From Pristiophorus japonicus (Eukaryota), in assembly GCF_044704955.1 (NCBI RefSeq), contig NC_091977.1:79484001-79548000 (forward strand): DNA of 64,000 bases, written 5' to 3'. The notes under the pieces were generated by a model. It was not told where the DNA came from, made no database searches, and saw only the letters and a list, made by a program, of their open reading frames with translations. Shown piece by piece: positions 2,031 to 63,520 of this stretch. The position numbers and the translations under genes are program-made. Numbering within the stretch: position 1 is the first letter of the stretch; the number at the start of each line of letters is the position of its first letter.

Positions 2031-2746
2031 GAGGTGAGAGAAGGAGGAACTGAAGGGAATCCTTATTAGTCAGGAAATTGTGTTAGGGAAATTGAGGGGA
2101 TTGAAGGCCGATAAAGCCCCAGGGCCTGATACCAGAGTACTTAAGGAAGTGGCCCTAGAAATAGTGGATGCATTGGTAGTCATTTTGCAACATTCTGTAG
2201 ACTCTGGTTCAATTCCTATGGATTGGAGGGTAGCTAATGTAACCCCACTTTTTAAAAAAGGGAGAAAACAGGGCATTATAGACTGGTTAGCCTGATATCG
2301 GTAGTGGGGAAAATGCTGTAATCAATTATTAAAGCTGTAATAGCAGTGCATTTGGAAAGCAGTGACGGGATCGGTTCAAGTCAGCATGGATTTATAAAAG
2401 GGAAATCATGCTTGACAAATCTTCTGGAATTTTTTGAGGATGTAACTAGTAGAGTGGATAAGGGAGAACTAGTGGATGTGGTGTATTTGGACTTTCAAAA
2501 GGCTTTTGACAAGGTCCCACACAAGAGATTAGTGACAAAATTAAGGCATGTGGTATTGGGGGTAATGTACTGACGTGGATAGAGAACTGGTTGGCGGACA
2601 GAAAGCAAAGAGTGGGAATAAACGGGACCTTTTCTGAATGGCAGGCAGTGACTAGTGGGGTGCCGCAGGGTTCAGCTTTTTACAATATACATTAGTGATT
2701 TAGACGAAGGAATGGAATGTAATATCTCCAAGTTTGCAGATGACAC

Positions 2747-3088
2747 TGATAGAGAATTCAAACAGGTTGCAGACAGGCTGCAAAGTTGAGAAAACACAGA
2801 CTCCATGTCTACGTGCTAGTGAGCACATTGTGTTAAATCATCAAAATCAACTTGACATTTCAGGACCTTTGACAATGAGCCAATTAGGGGTTAACAATAT
2901 ATCAATTGAGCCAATAAGGTCAAAGGAGGCAAGTTCTGTAAATTCATCCAGGATAAGAACAGCCATGTGTTCTCAGAAGGACAAAGGAACTGGCAATCAG
3001 CCAAAAGCTTCTATGCTGCTGTTGGAATAAAATTACGTTAAACCTACAACCGGAGTTCGCATTTCATTGAAAATTAAGAGATCTAACA
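2747..3088 (+). repeat. ERV 5' LTR (342 bp)
   Basis: TGATAGAG...CTAACA, direct repeat of 9273-9610, AATAAA at 3026-3031. Confidence 0.95.
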
Positions 3089-3092
3089 ATTT

Positions 3093-3110
3093 TGGCGTCA
3101 CAAACAGGAT
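3093..3110 (+). other. Primer binding site, tRNA-Ser(CGA) type
   Basis: TGGCGTCACAAACAGGAT, 4 nt after the LTR. 17/18 complementary to the recalled vertebrate tRNA-Ser-CGA 3' end (ATCCTGTTCGTGACGCCA). Confidence 0.8.
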
Positions 3111-3378
3111 TGCTGAGGCAAGAAACTGAATTTTGGACATCAGTCCTACATACTGAGGTAAGGACTCCTCTTTATAAAAAGTCCTCGGTCAATTGTCTAA
3201 ATTCGCCTCCCCTTCTAGGCGATTCTGAAAGCCTCCGGTTTGCGAATCCTCCGGTTGGTGATCGGCTTGAGATCCCACAGACGTCTAAACTTCGGCGGTG
3301 TGTTAGTTAATTCATCACCGACCCACTGATTCGGCTGGAAAGCCTACGACTCAAGACCCCAGTAAAGAAATTAATAAT

Positions 3379-4925
3379 ATGGCAGCTGAAGACAAGAGCA
3401 AATAATTGCCTACTACTGTTAAAGGTGGATGGGCAACACCCGAGGTTTCGATAGATGAAATCCTCGAACAGTTGAAAGAATACATCGAGCAACAATTCAA
3501 CTTATCTAAAACCTGTGTTAAGATCGAACGAAAATACAGTACCTCCAAAGGACAATGGTCCTTGGATGAGATCAAAAGGGTCTGGGGAAAAACGACCTGT
3601 ATGAAAAATAAACAAACGAACCAGATGGTCCCTTGCTGTTGTGGGACAGATCCAACAGCGGAATGAAATTATAACGTGTTCGCAATATGATAGGGACCTG
3701 ACCAGTACAAAGGACCAATTGCAAGCGGTTTGTGAACAGCTGAGACAGAAAAAGCTTGAACTTGAAAAAAGTCAGAAGTGGAAGTTAAAGATCTTAAAAG
3801 GTGAAATTAAAGAATGGAAAAAATCATTAGGTCAAGAGACAGTAATAGGAAAAGGAAAATGTATCGGTCAATTCCCAAGGTACCCATGTTTGGATAAATT
3901 AAAAGCGCAAACCCGAAGACACGACCAAGGAATAGAGATACAGATTGTGAGTCCTCCGACGATACAGGGTCGGAGGATGAAGAATTAGGGATGCGCTTTG
4001 CCCCGTTTAAAAAAAAGACGAGTTGTAGTCAAATCAGAAGAGACTGCGGATGAGGACGGAACCAAAAAAACGAAGAAAAGGGTATATGCAGAATACTTAT
4101 TTCATGATCCGGCATACCCAGAGAAAATTGATAAATGGTCCAAGGAGTTGCCCAATCCAAAGAAAGGGGAAGTGAAAACGTGGGACCAATTGGACCGCTG
4201 AAGAAATATATATCAACTTCATCCCTGGGATGGAGTGCAAATTTTGACCATAATGATGCCAAAAACACAAGGAAGAAGCAGCTTTGGGGCAGGATGAGCA
4301 AGAATTAAACGCAGGATGGGAGGCGATTAAACACTGGCTGCAAGCCTTCTATCCAGCTAAGACTGACTGGGGAAAAATTGCAGCCTGCCAACAGAAAGGA
4401 ACAGAGGAGGTCCTGGAGTATGACGAACGGTTTAGATGCACGTGGCTAGAACATTCGGGTATGAATAATACGGATGAGGAAATGGATGAACAAGAGTTTG
4501 GACCCCTGAAAGCAGCTTTCGTGGCAGGTCTAAAGCCAGAACTGTCCAAAATGCTTAAGGTAGTGTTACCAGACTGGGAAGGCAGAGGAACTACCTTTGC
4601 AGCATTGGTGAATCGATGTAACCAATTAGACAGGGATATGGGAGCTAAAGTTCGAGCTGTGCAGGCTATGGGATGGAAATCCCAGGATTCCGATAAACAG
4701 TCATTGGGAAAATTACCCGGAAAATGTCATTATTGTGGGAAAAAAGGTCACTGGGCCAAGACGTGCAGGGCGAAATAGCAAGGTCGCGGCCGGGGAAGAG
4801 GACGTGGCCAGGGATACAATTCAGCCAATAAACCAGGCTTGCCACAAGATAACGACCTCATAGAAGCATTTAAGCGCCTGACAATACAACAGAAGGAGTT
4901 ACTTGGGATAGCAAAAAACGATTAG
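3379..4925 (+). pseudogene. gag: ERV gag (stops and frameshifts)
   Basis: ORF fragments 3406-3666, 3641-3988, 3998-4201, 4284-4778. MHR-like QKGTEEVLEYDERF, single CCHC knuckle CHYCGKKGHWAKTC, RG-rich tail, frame ends at TAG 4923-4925. Confidence 0.85.
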
Positions 4926-7900
4926 AGCCCACCCTGGCCCCCCTCCTTGCACTAATACAACAGAGGGGAGATGGGCTATATATAACTGAGGGTGGGCGAT
5001 AAGGATGTGGACTGTCTTTTAGACACAGGGGTGGAATTAACATGCTTACCCCTACAATATGGTAGGGCACATACAGCCTTTGGAGTTGGGGGCCATAAAA
5101 TGGAAATTAAAAGGACAACACCGGTACTTTTCGGGCTGGGTCCACATGAACTAACCACGCCGGTCTGGATAGGCCCAGTAGATCAACCCCTTTTGGGAAT
5201 GGACATTCTAATCCAAGTAGATTCATCGTTGCATTGAGGATGATCAGGTGACATGGTCAATTAGAACTTAAAGAAGAATTGAAGGAACACCCGATATGGG
5301 CTAAAGACAAGAATGATTGTGGCCTATTCCAGATGGAGCCTGTGTCATTTACCGGGACCAAGCCTCCATGCACTAAACAGTTTCCCATCAGTCCAACTGC
5401 CATCGCGGGAATCTTACCGGTTATTCAGCAATTGGAGAAACAAGGGGTGCTTATTAAAACGCATAGCTCCTCCAATAGCCCCGTGTGGCCGGTACAGAAA
5501 TCTAATGAAACTTGGCGTTTGACTGTCGATTATAGGAAAGCTAACCAGTGTATTGATCAAAAAGCTCCTTTGGTCGCAGATCCCTCCACCATTTTTAATG
5601 CCCTCAAACCGGAACATAAATATTTCTCGGTTGTAGATATGGCCAACGGATTTTGGTCAGTGCCTCTGGAACCGGAGGTTCGACAGTGGTTTGCTTTCAT
5701 GGTCCAAGGACAACAGTATACTTGGACCCAGTTACCGCAGGGTTTCCACAACAGCCCTACGGTATTCCACATGGCTTTACAATGCCATTTGCGAGAATTA
5801 CCTCCCCTGTCATCCAATATGTAGACGATATCCTGCTAGCTTCAAACACGGAAGAACAGCATGAACAAGATTTATGAGCTTTGCTGGATCACCTTTGGCT
5901 GAAAGGACATAAAGCCAGCATCGACAAAGCACAAATATCCCAAGAAGAGATTGTATACCTGGGACAAAAGATTTCACAAGGAAAGAGAGAACTTACCCAG
6001 GATAGAACTGCAGCCATTCAGGCTGCTAAAAAACCCATCACTATTCAGGAACTAAGATCCTTTTTGGGATTGTGTAACTTTAACAGAAATTGGATTGACT
6101 CCTTCACACAGCTTGCTTAGCCATTGAATGATATCTTAAAGGGGAAAGTGCCTCTAAAGAAGCCATCACCCTCACTAACAGCAAGAGGCCTTCCGGAGTT
6201 TGAAAAAGGCTGTGTGTTCAGCATCGGCTCTGGGAATCCCCGACAGTGGTAAGCCATTTACCCTGTTTGTCCATAAGAAAGAAGGATACATGACAGCTAT
6301 ACTGACACAAGAACATTGGGGATCAGCAAAGACCAAATGGCTATTATTCGGCAAAACTGGATGCGGTAGCCCTCGGATGGGGAAGTTGCCTAAGGGCCAT
6401 GGAAGCTACATGTCGAGCGGTAATGACCACTGCGGGACTAGTCCTCGACCAAAGATGATTGTCAAGTGTCCCCACACTGTACACGCTTTGTTGTCTGAAT
6501 AGAATGTCTCAGGTGACGGCAGCTAGATGGACCCACTGGACAGCAGTTTTGGAAACTCCTAATCTCCATATCGTCCGGGCAAACCCGGTTAATCCTGCAA
6601 CTATGCTCCCGATGTCAGAATCGAGGGAGCAAGAGGGGGGAGAATGTGAAGAGCATGACTGCGTGGAGATTTTAAAAGAAACAGAAGCAGCAGCCTTAGC
6701 AGCAGAGGAGCCTCTGCACATCCCAGACCTCATCCTGTTTACAGATGGTTCCTCCTTTGTTGACAATGGTACCAGAAAAGCAGGATGGGCAGTTACAACC
6801 TTATATGAGGTAGTGGCAAAAGGATGTTTACCCTCAGGAACGTCAGCACAACAGGCCGAGTTACGGGTCCTGTCAGAAGCATGTTGAATAGCAGAAGGAC
6901 AGACTGCTAACGTCAACACAGATTCGCGTTATGCTTTTGGAGTCACTCACGACTTTGGTCTGTTATGGCGGAAAAGAGGATTCCTCACTGCCGCTGGTAC
7001 ATCTATCCGAAATGGAAAAGAAGTCCGAGACTTACTAGAGGCCATACAATTACCTCAGGAAGTATCCATCCTGAAGTGTAAGGCCCATACCAAGGAAAAT
7101 ACCACGGAAGCACAGGGAAATGCCCTAGCCGACCAGGCAGGACGCTCCCCCAGAAGAACGAACACAGATGTGCAGATTGAAAGCACTCAGGACTCAGACA
7201 CAAGACCTTCAAACAATGCAAGGCGAGTGCTCCAGAGAGGAAAAGTGGACATGGATTAGGCAGGAATTAAGCTATGCGAAGATGGTGTCTGGAGACAAAG
7301 TTACCAACAAGCCAGTCACACCACAAGCGCTTATGCCTTTTTTAGCCCAACAGATCCACTCGTGGGGACACTTGACCTCACAACAGATGACGGCACGGTT
7401 CCAGAAAAGCTGGTGGGGTCGTAGATTTAAAAAACACACCCAGCTGGTAGCAGACCGATGTGTGATCTGCCAGAAAAATAATTCTGGACCCATCACGGTA
7501 ATGCCCCAACTGAGGCCCCCTGCCAGTGTCAGACCATTCCAGCATCTGCAGGTTGATTATATATTTCTCCCTCCATGCCAAGGATACAGTAACATTTTTG
7601 TCATGGTCGACAGATTCTCTAGATGGGTAGAAACTGTCCCAACTAAAAGAGCCACAGCCAATCACACTGCAAAAGATCTTGTGTAAGGATTACATTCCCC
7701 AATGGGGAGTCCTGAGTAGCATTGACTCAGATCAGGGAACACATTTCACAGGTGCTGTCTGCCAAGAAGTCTGTCGGTTACTGAACATTACGTGGGATTT
7801 ACATAGTCCTTATCACCCACAATCATAAGGACAAGTAGAGTGAATGAATCGAACTCTGAAACAGTGGCTTGCCAAATATCACCAAGAAGGAACACCATGG

Positions 7901-8330
7901 TCCCAGGCACTACCAATAGTGCTATGTAGCATTAGGGCAACCCCAAACAGAACTACAGGTCTGAGCCCATTTGAAATTATAACAGGAAGACAACCCATGT
8001 CGCTGCCAGGAAATATCGATTTACAGAAAGCTGATGTTCACTTAATGAGTGACACTTTGTTATCACACAGTCAGGACCTAACCAATGCTATTAGTTCTGT
8101 TTCCCGACAGGTATCGTCAGCTTGGGGTAATCCACCCGAAGGAGGACACGACATCATCTCAGAAGTTTGGGTGTATGTGAAAAAGTTGCATAAAGAACCT
8201 TTGGGTGCCAAGTGGGAGGGACCTTATCAAGTGTTATTGACCACCCAGGCAGCTGTTGAAGTCCAAGGAAAGAAAGCCTGGATCCACGCTTCACACGTTA
8301 AATGAGCACCCGTAACTGAAGCTGAAATCT
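4919..8330 (+). pseudogene. pol: ERV pro-pol (protease, RT, RNase H, integrase), disrupted
   Basis: PR LLDTG. RT WRLTVDYR, LPQGFHNSP, QYVDDILLAS. RNase H FTDGSS, SAQQAEL. IN HHCC (H-SWG-H...CVIC), LQVDY, DSDQGTHFTG, WEGPYQV. Confidence 0.95.
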
Positions 8331-8356
8331 GACAAAGACAATTACTTTTTGCCAAA

Positions 8357-9014
8357 ATGTATAAATTTACTGTATTACTGACTGCAGGTATTCTAGGCAT
8401 TTGCCTACTTACTAGCCGACCCTCTGCACCAAAGGGAAATAGTAGAGTACCCAGGGAATTACATGTAAATACCTTTTTACATATGTCATACATTTATGCC
8501 AAAGTAACACTTCTAGTTGTTGGGTGTGTGCACACATATTCCTATTCACTCAAATGATACTTCAGAGGCCCTAGTTAAAATCAATGCAGAAATGGTAGCA
8601 ATCCGCACAGTAGCCCTACAGAATAGACTGGCCCTTGACTACATCCTGGCTGAAAATGGAGGTACTTGCGCCCGACTCGGAACTAAGTGTTGCACATATA
8701 TTCCAGATCGCGCCGAAGAAATTACCCACTTAGCGGAGCATATCCAAAAGGAGATAGAAAAAATTAAGCAACCCCCATCATTCACTTTGTGGAGCAGAGC
8801 CACTGAATGGCTAGGTTCAATAGGAACTTCATTGGTGGAAGGTTTAATTCTATTTGTAATTATTTTACTTTTATATTGTTTGTTTATGTTGATTAAATGT
8901 TGTTGCAACCAGGCGGCTGTAGCTGCTGTCCCACCTTGCAGGTTCCAGCAGACCGTCTGTACGTGGCACAGGGGTATGTTATGCTTAAGGGAAGGTTGTT
9001 TACTGATTGAATGA
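8357..9014 (+). pseudogene. env: ERV env, gamma-type, frameshifted with a large internal deletion
   Basis: Signal peptide MYKFTVLLTAGILGICLL, NTSSCWVC, ISD LQNRLALDYIL, CX6CC (CARLGTKCC), membrane-spanning helix. Confidence 0.9.
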
Positions 9015-9250
9015 AGATATTGATTTGGATTAAATTGGAATGAGGTTAATTAACCTACTAAAACCAGACTTCCATTGTGGCCACGATGGAATTCAGGTTG
9101 ATGTAAATTTGTGTGGAAGCTACTAGTCCGGATATGTGGTGAAACACATCAACAAATTTTAGAAGGAAACTCTTAACATGTATGAAATTATTTTGTAGAA
9201 TGTTTAACCAGTGATGCCTGATGTTTTATGATTCAGTTTGTGAAAGAATC

Positions 9251-9270
9251 AAGGGGAGGGGGGGGGGGGG
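9251..9270 (+). other. Polypurine tract
   Basis: AAGGGGAGGGGGGGGGGGGG, 2 nt before the 3' LTR. Confidence 0.85.
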
Positions 9271-9272
9271 AT

Positions 9273-9610
9273 TGATAGAGAATTCAAACAGGCTGCAAAG
9301 TTGAGAACAGACTCCATGTCTACGTGCTCGTGAGCACATTGCATTAAGTCATCAAAATCAACATGACATTTGCAGGACCTTTGGCAGCGAGCCAATTAGG
9401 GGTTAACAATATATCAATTGAGCCAATAAGGTCAAAGGAGGCGAGTTCTGTAAATTCATCCAGGATAAGAACAGCCATGTTTTGCCATGTGTTCTCAGAA
9501 GGACAAAGGAACTGGCAATCAGCCAAAAGCTTGTATGCTGCTGTTAGAATAAAGTTACGTTAAACCTACAACCGGAGTTCGCATTTCATTGAAAATTAAG
9601 AGATGTAACA
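9273..9610 (+). repeat. ERV 3' LTR (338 bp)
   Basis: Repeat of 2747-3088, followed by the ACAC TSD. Confidence 0.95.
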
Positions 9611-12600
9611 ACACTACGCTGGGTGGCAGTGCGAGCTGCGAGGATGCTAGGTGGCTGCAGGAGGACTTGGACAGGTTAGATGAATATACTGCATCTGCCC
9701 AATGTGAGGTTATCCACTTTGGTTGCAAAAACAGGAAGGCGGATTAGTAAAAAGGGGAGGTGCAACAAGACCTGGGTGTCATGGTACATTAGTCATTGAA
9801 GGTAGGCATGTAGGTACAGCAGGCAGTACAGAAGGCAAATGGCATGCTGGCCTTCATAGCGAGGGGATTTGAGTATAGGAGCAGGGAGGTCTTACTGCAG
9901 TTGTACAGGGCCTTGGTGGGACCACATCTTAAGCAGTGTGTGCAGTTTTGGTCTCCTAATCTGAGGAAGGATATTGCTATTGAGGGAGTGCAGCGAAGGT
10001 TCACCAGACTGATTCCTGGGATAGCAGGACTGACATAAGACTGGATCGTCGAGGCTTATATTCACTGGAATTTAGAAGAATGAGAGGGGATCTCATAGAA
10101 ACATAAACTTCTGACAGGATTGGACAGGTTAGATGCAGGAAGAATGTTCCCGATGTTGGGAAAGTCCAGAACCAGGGGTCACAGTCTAAGGATAAGGGGT
10201 GAGCCATTTAGGACCGAGATGAGGAGAAACCTCTTCATTCAGAATTGTGAACCTGTGGAATTCTCTACCACAGAAAGTTGTTGAATCCAGTTCGTTAGAT
10301 ATATTCAAAAGGGAGTTAAATGTGGCCCTTACGGCTAAAGGGATCAAGGGGTATAGAGAGAAAGCAGAATGGGGTACTGAAGTTGCATGATCAGCCATGA
10401 TCTTATTGAATGGTGGTGCAGGCTCAAAGGGCTGAATGGCCTACTCCTGCACCTACTTTCTATGTTTCTGTGTCATCCAGTCTAATCCCAATTTCCAGCT
10501 CAAGGTCCATAACCCTGCAGGTAACTGCACTTAAAGTGCCCATCCAACCATCTCTTAAAAGTGGTGAGGGTTTCCTAGAGGATCTTTTACAAAGAGATCA
10601 TTTATTAATCCTGCCTCATTACATAGTACTAGATCGAAGATAGCCTGCTCCCTGGTTGGTTCCGCAACTTACTGTTCAGGGAAACTATCCAGAATACACT
10701 ACGAACTCTGAGGAGATATAACAATTAACACTATCAGCTAAACTGAGGGCCAGGAAGGGAAGTTGGGTGCTCAGCAGTTTAATGGAAATAAAGTCGTGGA
10801 AGCAGGAGGTGGGTCTTATGTACAAAATAAGCTCAGAGGGCATGAGTGGGGATAAGAGAGAAATTAGACAAAGTTGTAAGTTCAGGACTAGGGCAGGGGG
10901 GAATCTTAAGAGGAAGTTTGGCTCGGTGTGCTAAAGGAAGGGAGAGAAGCGGCAGAGGCAGTTGAACGGATGGTCTGAATCTTGGTGACGAAGGAGTCTA
11001 TTTAGCTCCTCATACTTGTTGGATGTGAGGCTGGAGGAGACAGGGGAGAGGGGTTTGCAGTAAAGAAGCCTGGGGTTATGTTTGCATTCTAGGATGATCC
11101 TGGATTAGTGAGCAGTTTTGGCAAACTAAAGCAGGACCCGATGGTGCTTTATGTGGTCGAGCCAGATCTGGCAGTGAATGGCTAAACCATATATAAACCG
11201 ACATATATGTTCAAGTCTGTGTCCCTTAGACGCAAGGGAGCAGAGGAGAGGGCTGTACCAGGGGGAACGACCAGGGAGAGAGACCATTAACATCTGGGTC
11301 CCTTGTATGACCTCATACCCAAGAATAAATTCAATTTGGTATCAGTCTTCACATCAAGACTTGTACAATGTTGTATTCTATGTGCAATACCAAAATTTGC
11401 AACTCCATTTACCAAACACAAAAGTGGGGGGGGGGGGGGGGGGGGGGAAAAGAGAGAAGGTGCAGGGTGAATGTTCCCTCCATCATGGAAGATTTAATGG
11501 CAGGTGGTGGAAGTTCCATAATGCAACATGTGAAGATGTTATACACAGAAGCAATTGAATTGGGTAACAAAAATTGTCACAACATACTTGAGAAGCCCTG
11601 AATCCTGTCAATAATCCTCCCCAAGTGTCTGTGGAATAAAAGAGCAATTTAGTTTGGTAATTATTCACTGACCAGTAAAAGGAATTACAAATATAGGAAC
11701 AGTGACGAACAGTAATGACCCTTACATATCACAATATATACTCTCCACCCCAATCAAAATCATGTGATCTCCTGGGAGAGGTGAAAAACCAACTTTCAAA
11801 AAAAAAACAGGCCCATTTGGGGGAGAAAAAAAAATCTGGGTAATTCCTCTCCAACCCATCGAGGTGATCAAAATTAGTCCAGGTCCACTGGCCTTGAATT
11901 CACTGCAGTACCAACCTTTTGCAAGAGGTGATCGCTACACCAACCAAAAACAGGTTCAGCTCTAGCTTGAAATAATTCAGTCAAGCAGCATCCACCATGC
12001 AAAACAGCAGCCTGTTCCAGAGGTACACTATTCTCTGGGAAAAGAACCACTTCCTGACATCTAACCTAGATCTGGCCTTTTACAACTTAAAATTTGTGAC
12101 CTCTGGTCCTCTCTAACCTACTGGAACAAACTGTCAACTGGAACACAATCTATTATCTTATAAACCTCAATTCAATCACCTCTTAGTTTACACTTCTCTA
12201 AAGTGTAGAGTCCCAATTCTTTTAGCCTATTTTGCAAACCAAGATGTTTTAAACTGGGAATTTAGTGGCCCTGCTCTACACCCTTTCCAAAACCTCAATA
12301 TCACCCCCATGTGAGACGACCAACACTAGACACAATATTTCACGTGAGGCCTGACCAAGATCTTGTTCAAGGGTAAAATAGTATGCCTCGTCTTGTACTC
12401 AATTGGCCTATGGATAAACCCCAACTCCCTATTTGCTTTAGCTATCACTTCACGGCATTGCTCATGCACCTTTAGCGATATATGCACAAGAATGCCCAAA
12501 TCTGTTTCTAACTCCACCTTCTTTAATGCTTTTTCCTAAAGGGTATATGAATGTTGCCCACATACATAACACTGCACTTATCCAAGTTATGCATCGTTTG

Positions 12601-15304: not shown

Positions 15305-63520
<48,216 letters not shown>

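Follow-up and report, generated by a model that had tools for sequence, protein, structure and literature searches.

The window analysed here is a 64,000-nucleotide stretch of the genome of the shark Pristiophorus japonicus (NCBI RefSeq GCF_044704955.1, contig NC_091977.1, positions 79,484,001 to 79,548,000 of the forward strand), and it carries a provirus whose bounds are exact at 2747 and 9610. This element is a real but decayed retroviral insertion of a high-copy family. We consider it probable that the family belongs to a lineage common to sharks and ray-finned fish which is sister to all class I retroviruses (gamma- and epsilonretroviruses), with snakehead retrovirus (SnRV) further out, and which makes Pro-Pol by a predicted −1 ribosomal frameshift.

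The provirus lies between two long terminal repeats (LTRs) running from TG to CA, which differ by 13 substitutions in 327 aligned bases (Kimura two-parameter distance 0.041; Table 1). The Pfam domains zf-CCHC, RVP, RVT_1, RNase_H, rve, MLVIN_C, and TLV_coat follow each other in retroviral order, and no dUTPase match is found in the provirus. The primer binding site is complementary to the 3′ end of a host tRNA-Ser(CGA) gene, for which one of the two loci found is called as a tRNA. Thus, the LTR comparison, the motif positions, Pfam, and the host tRNA-Ser gene bear out the bounds, the motifs, and the serine primer site reported by the first-pass annotation, and its description of a Gag without an N-terminal glycine and with one CCHC finger also stands. 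The spacers on the LTR sides are unequal, with 4 nt at the primer site, a spacing that is family-wide, and 2 nt at the purine tract; two is the usual number.

Table 1. Features of the provirus and its target site, in window coordinates.
Feature	Position	Strand	Remarks
Left target-site duplication, ACAC	2743–2746	+	Right copy at 9611–9614; 4 bp in the window copy, 5 bp in most siblings
5′ LTR	2747–3088	+	342 bp, TG...CA; AATAAA at 3026
Primer binding site, tRNA-Ser(CGA)	3093–3110	+	4 nt (3089–3092) separate the LTR end from the site
gag, broken	3379–4925	+	No Gly2; coiled-coil-like stretch, capsid domain, one CCHC (4725–4766); stop 4923–4925
Predicted −1 frameshift signal	4913–4980	+	Heptamer A AAA AAC at 4913–4919, one codon before the gag stop; G+C-rich stem ~6 nt further on
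Protease, broken; opens the pro-pol frame	4950–5250	+	LDTG at 5019
Reverse transcriptase fingers, palm, and thumb; broken	5252–6130	+	WRLTVDYR at 5513, DMANGFWS at 5636, QQYTWTQLPQGFHNSP at 5711, YVDDILL at 5818
Tether and RNase H, broken; close to class I	6131–7140	+	FTDGSS at 6738, SAQQAE at 6843
Integrase, broken	7141–8305	+	HHCC, core, GPY/F-type C-terminal domain; WEGPY at 8213; pol stop 8303–8305
Gamma-type env remnant	8357–9014	+	Signal peptide; ~700 bp missing at 8553/8554; then transmembrane subunit with immunosuppressive domain (ISD, 8616), CX6CC (8667), and membrane anchor
Polypurine tract	9251–9272	+	Followed by 2 nt (9271–9272) to the 3′ LTR
3′ LTR	9273–9610	+	338 bp

The provirus had been called complete, which does not hold, as gag, pol, and env are all broken and env is short by about 700 bp. 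The natural frames of sibling copies map onto the window in three pieces for gag, nine for pol, and five for env, with shifts of frame and, in several pieces, stop codons. YVDD lies in a different frame from the reverse transcriptase (RT) motifs upstream of it, and the env gap removes most of the surface subunit, the furin site, and the fusion peptide. The window copy is inert.

All 150 scored matches of the RT piece in the shark's own genome are 92–100% identical to it, and seven of them lie in open frames of at least 1,000 codons. Exact patterns, whose counts are lower bounds, recover at least 2,270 LTR–primer site junctions and at least 1,632 gag-pol junctions. A search of sequencing runs listed no RNA run as a holder, a result that speaks neither for nor against. 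The 20 top-scoring copies (L013–L032) serve as the sibling set, and 16 of them are scorable for the target-site duplication, which is 5 bp long in 14, 4 bp in one, and lacking in one. LTR divergence is 0.006–0.032 in 15 siblings and 0.077 in the sibling without a duplication. At the rate assumed by Han (2.2e-10), the window copy would date to ~93 million years and the 15 siblings to 14–73 million years; since the rate is assumed, LTR dating was dropped as a firm age.

Outside the genome itself, the closest whole Pol proteins are those of carp, tetra, gar, anchovy, and zebrafish, with RT 58–67% identical, and the closest partial matches are shark proteins (85% for the integrase N-terminus, 76% for the transmembrane subunit, TM), which agrees with a shark host. 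The lineage had been taken for a chondrichthyan one, which is wrong, as it is common to carp, zebrafish, gar, tetra, pike, and anchovy.

Separate trees were built for RT, for tether/RNase H, and for integrase, together with a tree of whole Pol. Taxa came from a cluster-representative search with a sibling's natural Pol frame, which returned walleye epidermal hyperplasia virus 1 (WEHV-1), a SnRV-matching protein, and loki-type proteins; a later search added bird class III and one dUTPase-bearing ERV-L-like Pol. The anchors are P0121, named WEHV-1, and P0167, which matches the SnRV rows of the PMC7947760 supplement, while the loki-type rows P0192 and P0220 were recognised by motif. P0106 was dropped from the common alignment, rows covering less than 60% of a domain were left out, and a second taxon set was thinned by nine rows (P0138, P0123, P0143, P0160, P0173, P0135, P0142, P0233, and P0006).

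In the RT tree (mixture model, loki root), the lineage is a clade with support of 100/99, class I without it forms another at 99/98, and the two are joined at 87/91, leaving SnRV and ERV-L/S outside. Integrase gives the same order at 86/81 and 91/93, and at 91/91 in the second taxon set. With whole Pol, both the union of lineage and class I and class I without the lineage reach 100/99, and P0079 branches next. Tether/RNase H likewise unites the lineage with class I (96/99 and 88/96) and places it in a basal class I polytomy, with which a position as sister to class I is compatible (p-AU, approximately unbiased test, 0.42 and 0.40). Together with its fish relatives, the lineage is one clade at 100/99 in RT, tether/RNase H, and integrase alike, and the RT piece taken from the window itself pairs as sister with the query sibling. 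Tether/RNase H rejects a grouping of the lineage with SnRV (p-AU 0.027), and a grouping like clade Huo (SnRV/ERV-L related) is rejected both by integrase (p-AU 5e-4) and by tether/RNase H (3e-5). The description as a poorly sampled lineage is fair, as it stands outside class I and the SnRV branch in the trees and has no name. Just below the lineage and class I sits a second unnamed lineage (P0079, with P0028 and P0206; 98/97 on whole Pol), which likewise combines old RT motifs with an RNase H resembling that of class I.

The gag-pol junction, like the family's 5-bp duplication, is absent from the first-pass annotation. In all five siblings examined that have a long gag frame, the gag stop comes one codon past the heptamer A AAA AAC, and pol continues as a long frame at −1, which is open for 17 codons upstream. 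The heptamer is kept in 96 of the 100 junction matches listed, two having lost a base and two carrying substitutions, and an extra base that would fuse the frames occurs in none of these 100. In class II viruses, A AAA AAC functions as a slippery sequence. From this arrangement, we predict that Pro-Pol is expressed by one −1 ribosomal frameshift at the heptamer. Most ribosome passes on the ancestral virus would yield Gag, and Gag-Pro-Pol would arise when ribosomes slip back by one base at this site. In contrast to frameshifting, which reviews tie to alpha-, beta-, delta-, and lentiviruses, an in-frame gag-pol with stop-codon readthrough is assigned to gamma- and epsilonretroviruses, SnRV, SSSV, ZFERV, and other fish retroviruses (PMC13517186). 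The gag-pol of XtERV-S is in-frame as well (PMC8278194), and that of Ovex1 is an in-frame readthrough (PMC2717909).

Among cyprinid-type relatives, all five stand-alone Gags end in ..QEKN, and three fusions made by the open reading frame caller enter pol via ..GKKL. QEKN and GKKL are the 0 and −1 readings of one heptamer; thus, judging from the proteins, the cyprinid branch would share the −1 junction. This reading covers the cyprinid branch. Scans of viral contigs for relatives with DNA context confirmed none of one and none of 61 candidate stretches, and metagenome contigs gave only nine distant loci at 27–32% identity. A stronger statement would make the shark-to-ray-finned lineage a genus-level group to which the gamma- and epsilonretroviruses as a whole have no nearer outgroup, and which makes Gag-Pro-Pol through one −1 frameshift at a heptamer that is conserved between sharks and cyprinids; for us it stands in even balance.

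The predicted structure of a sibling capsid (pLDDT 79, pTM 0.50) is closest, among named retroviruses, to the Gag proteins of WEHV-2, a Rhinella endogenous retrovirus (ERV), and WDSV (walleye dermal sarcoma virus), and, within the PDB, to the capsid of murine leukemia virus (MLV), narrowly ahead of HIV-1. Its best fold match overall is BFVD V5NX06, labelled turtle herpesvirus ICP4c, which may be a retroviral Gag that was captured or wrongly labelled. When the Gag alignment was run as a profile against the PDB, matches to the RT of longer rows dominated. For the integrase piece, only foamy integrase matched in the PDB, which we take to reflect what is solved and not kinship.

A gamma-type Env is the rule among fish ERVs of every Pol group, although the Env of exogenous epsilonretroviruses is not gamma-type, according to published accounts. 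Relatives of the present env occur in many sharks and rays and in some ray-finned fish. The TM tree (38 of 43 env rows) resolves only shallow pairs, with the window TM beside a Heterodontus env at 98/88; it was built without MLV, SnRV, and WDSV rows and cannot test env recombination. The ancestral virus would enter cells with a gamma-type Env and would prime minus-strand DNA with tRNA-Ser.

Several observations weigh against the placement beside class I and against the shared junction. The trees contain no class II rows and no named gammaretrovirus, WDSV, SSSV, or ZFERV, and their “class I” rows were picked by motif and by the WEHV-1 anchor. RT alone is weak under LG+G4, where lineage and class I join at 79/33 and 79/0. 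Moreover, RT rejects neither SnRV as a partner (p-AU 0.20 and 0.13; in no best tree) nor ERV-L/S (0.058; not in the best tree, and with no crocodilian ERV4 row among the taxa), and neither a Huo-like group (0.052) nor WEHV (0.051). Integrase likewise rejects neither SnRV (p-AU 0.14) nor WEHV (0.12). The best LG tree of tether/RNase H sets the lineage beside WEHV at 54/36, as recombination would, and derived-looking RT columns come near a tie, with five shared with SnRV versus three with class I. In the tree of Xu et al (2018), relatives from gar, carp, and pike stand in the Huo block, by label order only (PMC6001957). Further, the window's own target duplication is 4 bp, and the stem ~6 nt past the heptamer is modest, with a z of −1.6 in the window and of −0.6 to −3.5 in four siblings. 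The fish junction is known from proteins and not from DNA, and the zebrafish gene model P0074 reads straight through it.

The element was originally read as a recombinant or mosaic of a SnRV-like RT with a class I-like RNase H, integrase, and env, and the difference in similarity on which this was based is real. The RNase H frame scores 143–165 bits against its best six MLV and XMRV chains and 28 against foamy virus, and the RT piece scores 116 bits against foamy virus versus 95 against MLV. Along Pol, sliding identity in the fingers is 40–46% to SnRV and SnRV-like rows versus 29–37% to class I groups; it turns to 23–31% versus 36–47% at the start of the tether and to 24–35% versus 41–55% in RNase H. 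RNase H is 36% identical to SnRV and 45–52% identical to two WEHV-type rows. Such a switch would be left by an ancient recombinant in which SnRV- or class III-like RT fingers and palm were joined to an early class I tether, RNase H, integrase, and env before the spread in sharks and ray-finned fish, an origin that we hold to be unlikely. It accords with an RT that is compatible with SnRV, ERV-L/S, and Huo-like groupings next to a tether/RNase H that rejects SnRV and Huo-like ones, with a 5-bp duplication, a Ser primer, and an unmyristoylated Gag, all traits foreign to class I, and with the domain replacements on record for retroviruses. However, no domain favours a conflicting tree. The best RT tree already sets the lineage beside class I, integrase puts it outside class I as RT does, and tether/RNase H is compatible with the sister position. 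The capsid lies on the far side of RT and likewise fits class I best, so that two crossovers would be needed, and the P0079 lineage repeats the gradient one node deeper, like a stepwise stem series. The separate domain trees that had been proposed as the check on the mosaic were thus run for RT, RNase H, and integrase and are free of conflict, the TM tree informing on shallow pairs only; the mosaic reading is not supported.

The RT motifs themselves would mostly be ancestral states, to judge from the alignment. WRLT(V/I)DYR is also present in loki, ERV-L/S-like, and SnRV-like rows, and eight of the 13 RT columns shared with SnRV but not with class I also occur in at least two of seven loki, foamy, and ERV-L rows; three of the 11 columns shared with class I but not with SnRV look derived. 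Since most of the SnRV-shared residues also occur in outgroups, a point against recombination as well, RT carries little derived signal. Under the placement as sister to class I, class I would have changed its RT finger motifs (WRLTxDYR to YRxVQDLR, NGFW to DAFF/NAFF) after the lineage diverged, whereas what it has in common with class I in tether, RNase H, integrase, and capsid would predate the split. Ancestral RT motifs and a shared class I-like remainder would together produce the mixed look without a donated segment. An MLV-like RNase H is expected in most non-foamy, non-lentiviral retroviruses (PMC7947760), and the SnRV integrase itself has an MLV-type C-terminal motif.

Less probable still is an ordinary member of clade Huo whose pull toward class I would come from taxon sampling. 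The label order in S2 Fig of Xu et al (2018; PMC6001957) points that way, and in SnRV, too, Gag is unmyristoylated, has a coiled coil, and carries one zinc finger (PMC2717909), and the integrase tail is of the GPY/F type, while the trees hold no class II rows. Yet both integrase and tether/RNase H reject a Huo-like clade that takes in the lineage, whole Pol unites the lineage with class I at 100/99, RNase H is nearer to the WEHV-type rows than to SnRV, and SnRV, XtERV-S, and Ovex1 all have an in-frame gag-pol.

A divergent epsilon-like element inside class I, in which a few RT motifs reverted or converged, is highly improbable. Its position within the basal class I polytomy on tether/RNase H, the WEHV partner that RT and integrase do not firmly reject, and the zinc finger, GPY/F motif, and missing dUTPase, which fit ERV1, speak for it, but class I excludes the lineage at 99/98 in RT and at 100/99 in whole Pol, the junction is not of the readthrough type, and the duplication is 5 bp in 14 of 16 scored siblings. 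The first-pass annotation had named, as the outcome that would speak against a distinct lineage, all domains falling congruently inside an already described epsilon-like or SnRV-like clade; in the trees, the lineage is placed outside both class I and the SnRV branch. A lokiretrovirus was rejected, as the loki-type rows are far off in the trees and Env here is TLV_coat and not a Mononegavirales-like fusion protein, and the features described here also led to the rejection of a foamy virus and of a crocodilian ERV4 (the latter by the presence of CCHC and GPY/F).

Within the host genome, the family has two Ser primer types, with 1,685 and 600 matches, the second of which matches host genes called tRNA-Ser at two of four loci examined. 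Most of env is lost in all ten second-type siblings, by several different deletions, whereas all eight scorable first-type siblings keep a full-length env region; these 18 siblings are related copies and not independent events. The pattern suggests an env-less subfamily of ~600 copies with the second Ser primer site, which likely would have spread further by intracellular copying. A nucleotide tree of 21 copies has no starred branch and does not recover the env-less copies as one clade. In one env-less sibling (L019), the integrase region is interrupted at 5778–8580 by 2.9 kb of inserted sequence that contains an open frame of 934 codons. Elsewhere in the genome (G000), three evenly spaced copies each lie at C7 7.42–7.43 Mb (~6.1 kb apart) and at C1 266.04–266.06 Mb (~5.4 kb apart); these are tandem proviral arrays or segmental repeats. 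The shark gene model P0131 (zinc finger protein 850-like) contains Gag, protease, RNase H, and integrase pieces of the family at 67–85% identity and is probably an annotation chimera.

At the locus itself, the provirus splits a LINE (long interspersed nuclear element) reverse transcriptase remnant, which we take to be CR1-like, at its FADD motif (2038–2746 and 9611–10430), and its reading resumes beyond the insertion. Two gene pieces lie on the minus strand. A gene start at 1–160, with the ATG ending at 160 and a basic N-terminus, looks to us like CAAP1, and a PUL-domain exon at 15305–15919 (Pfam E 1e-43) is presumably PLAA. The provirus is located between the two, ~2.6 kb upstream of the first gene and oriented away from it.

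The lineage is already sampled in print but undescribed. Xu et al (2018; PMC6001957) include gar, carp, and pike members, placed in the Huo block of S2 Fig as far as its label text tells, and in Wang and Han (2023; PMC10435555) members from pike and a cyprinid belong to the elements whose two LTRs are identical, which suggests that the lineage is still active in fish. A literature search to which subscription journals, Repbase, and Dfam were external returned no paper on the lineage's frameshift or on its place beside class I; S3 Fig of bioRxiv 2021.11.23.469661 may already place the lineage.

Taken by itself, the window copy is routine paleovirology, and its lineage is of greater interest. 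If sister to class I, the lineage would tell ancestral traits from derived ones where the largest retroviral group begins, with RNase H, the integrase tail, the type of capsid, and a gamma-type Env coming first and the class I RT motifs and 4-bp duplication later. If true, frameshifting in a lineage placed between SnRV and class I would imply that the switch between readthrough and frameshift occurred more than once, independently outside class II. The lineage is also a warning that filing fish ERVs as “SnRV-like” by short RT motifs is misleading.

By eye, without alignment, the same RT signature is found in the unnamed fish ERVs Le_oc_ERV2, Cy_ca_ERV4, and Es_lu_ERV3 (Xu et al, 2018; PMC6001957) and in Eluc.ERVi.2 and Mamb.ERVi.1 (Wang and Han, 2023; PMC10435555). 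The published fish rows have DMANGFWS or DMSNGFFS, ADPS, and GHKAS in common, and a motif of the carp row occurs in 41 collected proteins, including P0023, which lies inside the lineage. These rows come from ray-finned hosts and are tree tips only, and they stand in the Huo block in the figure of Xu et al, whereas the present trees place them beside class I.

With class I (ERV1, clades Jin and Mu; among them WEHV-1, WDSV, and MLV), the lineage shares the tether, RNase H, integrase core and tail, capsid fold, one CCHC, the lack of a dUTPase, and a pro in frame with pol. The class I combination of one or two Gag zinc fingers, GPY/F, and no dUTPase is present, and its first two elements are also found in SnRV. 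In contrast to class I, the lineage lies outside that group in the RT, integrase, and whole-Pol trees, has a −1 junction where class I uses stop-codon readthrough (PMC13517186), and mostly makes a 5-bp duplication where 4 bp is typical of class I (PMC4299795 Table 1). Unlike exogenous epsilonretroviruses, it has a gamma-type Env.

SnRV shares the RT finger motifs, a Gag without Gly2, the coiled coil, one zinc finger, and the GPY/F-type tail. It is, however, sister to the lineage in no best tree, is only 27% identical in the tether and 36% in RNase H, and uses readthrough in place of the −1 junction, and it has accessory open reading frames. SnRV-like ERVs include CmiERV lineage I of the elephant shark (Han, 2015; PMC4422223), whose sequences are absent from the trees; five short DNA motifs were not found in the available CmiERV file of that study, in which line breaks may hide matches.

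XtERV-S is a published mosaic of class III pol and class I env (Yedavalli et al, 2021; PMC8278194) and shares with the lineage the Ser primer site, the 5-bp duplication, a short gamma-type Env of ~440–450 residues, and a Gag of ~520–530 residues. As described there, it has no zinc finger but a dUTPase region and an in-frame gag stop, whereas the lineage has one CCHC, no dUTPase match, a −1 junction, and a class I-like RNase H. Finally, class III (ERV3-ERV4) has the 5-bp duplication in common with the lineage, but neither the Gag zinc finger nor GPY/F is listed for it (PMC4299795 Table 1), and both are present in the lineage.

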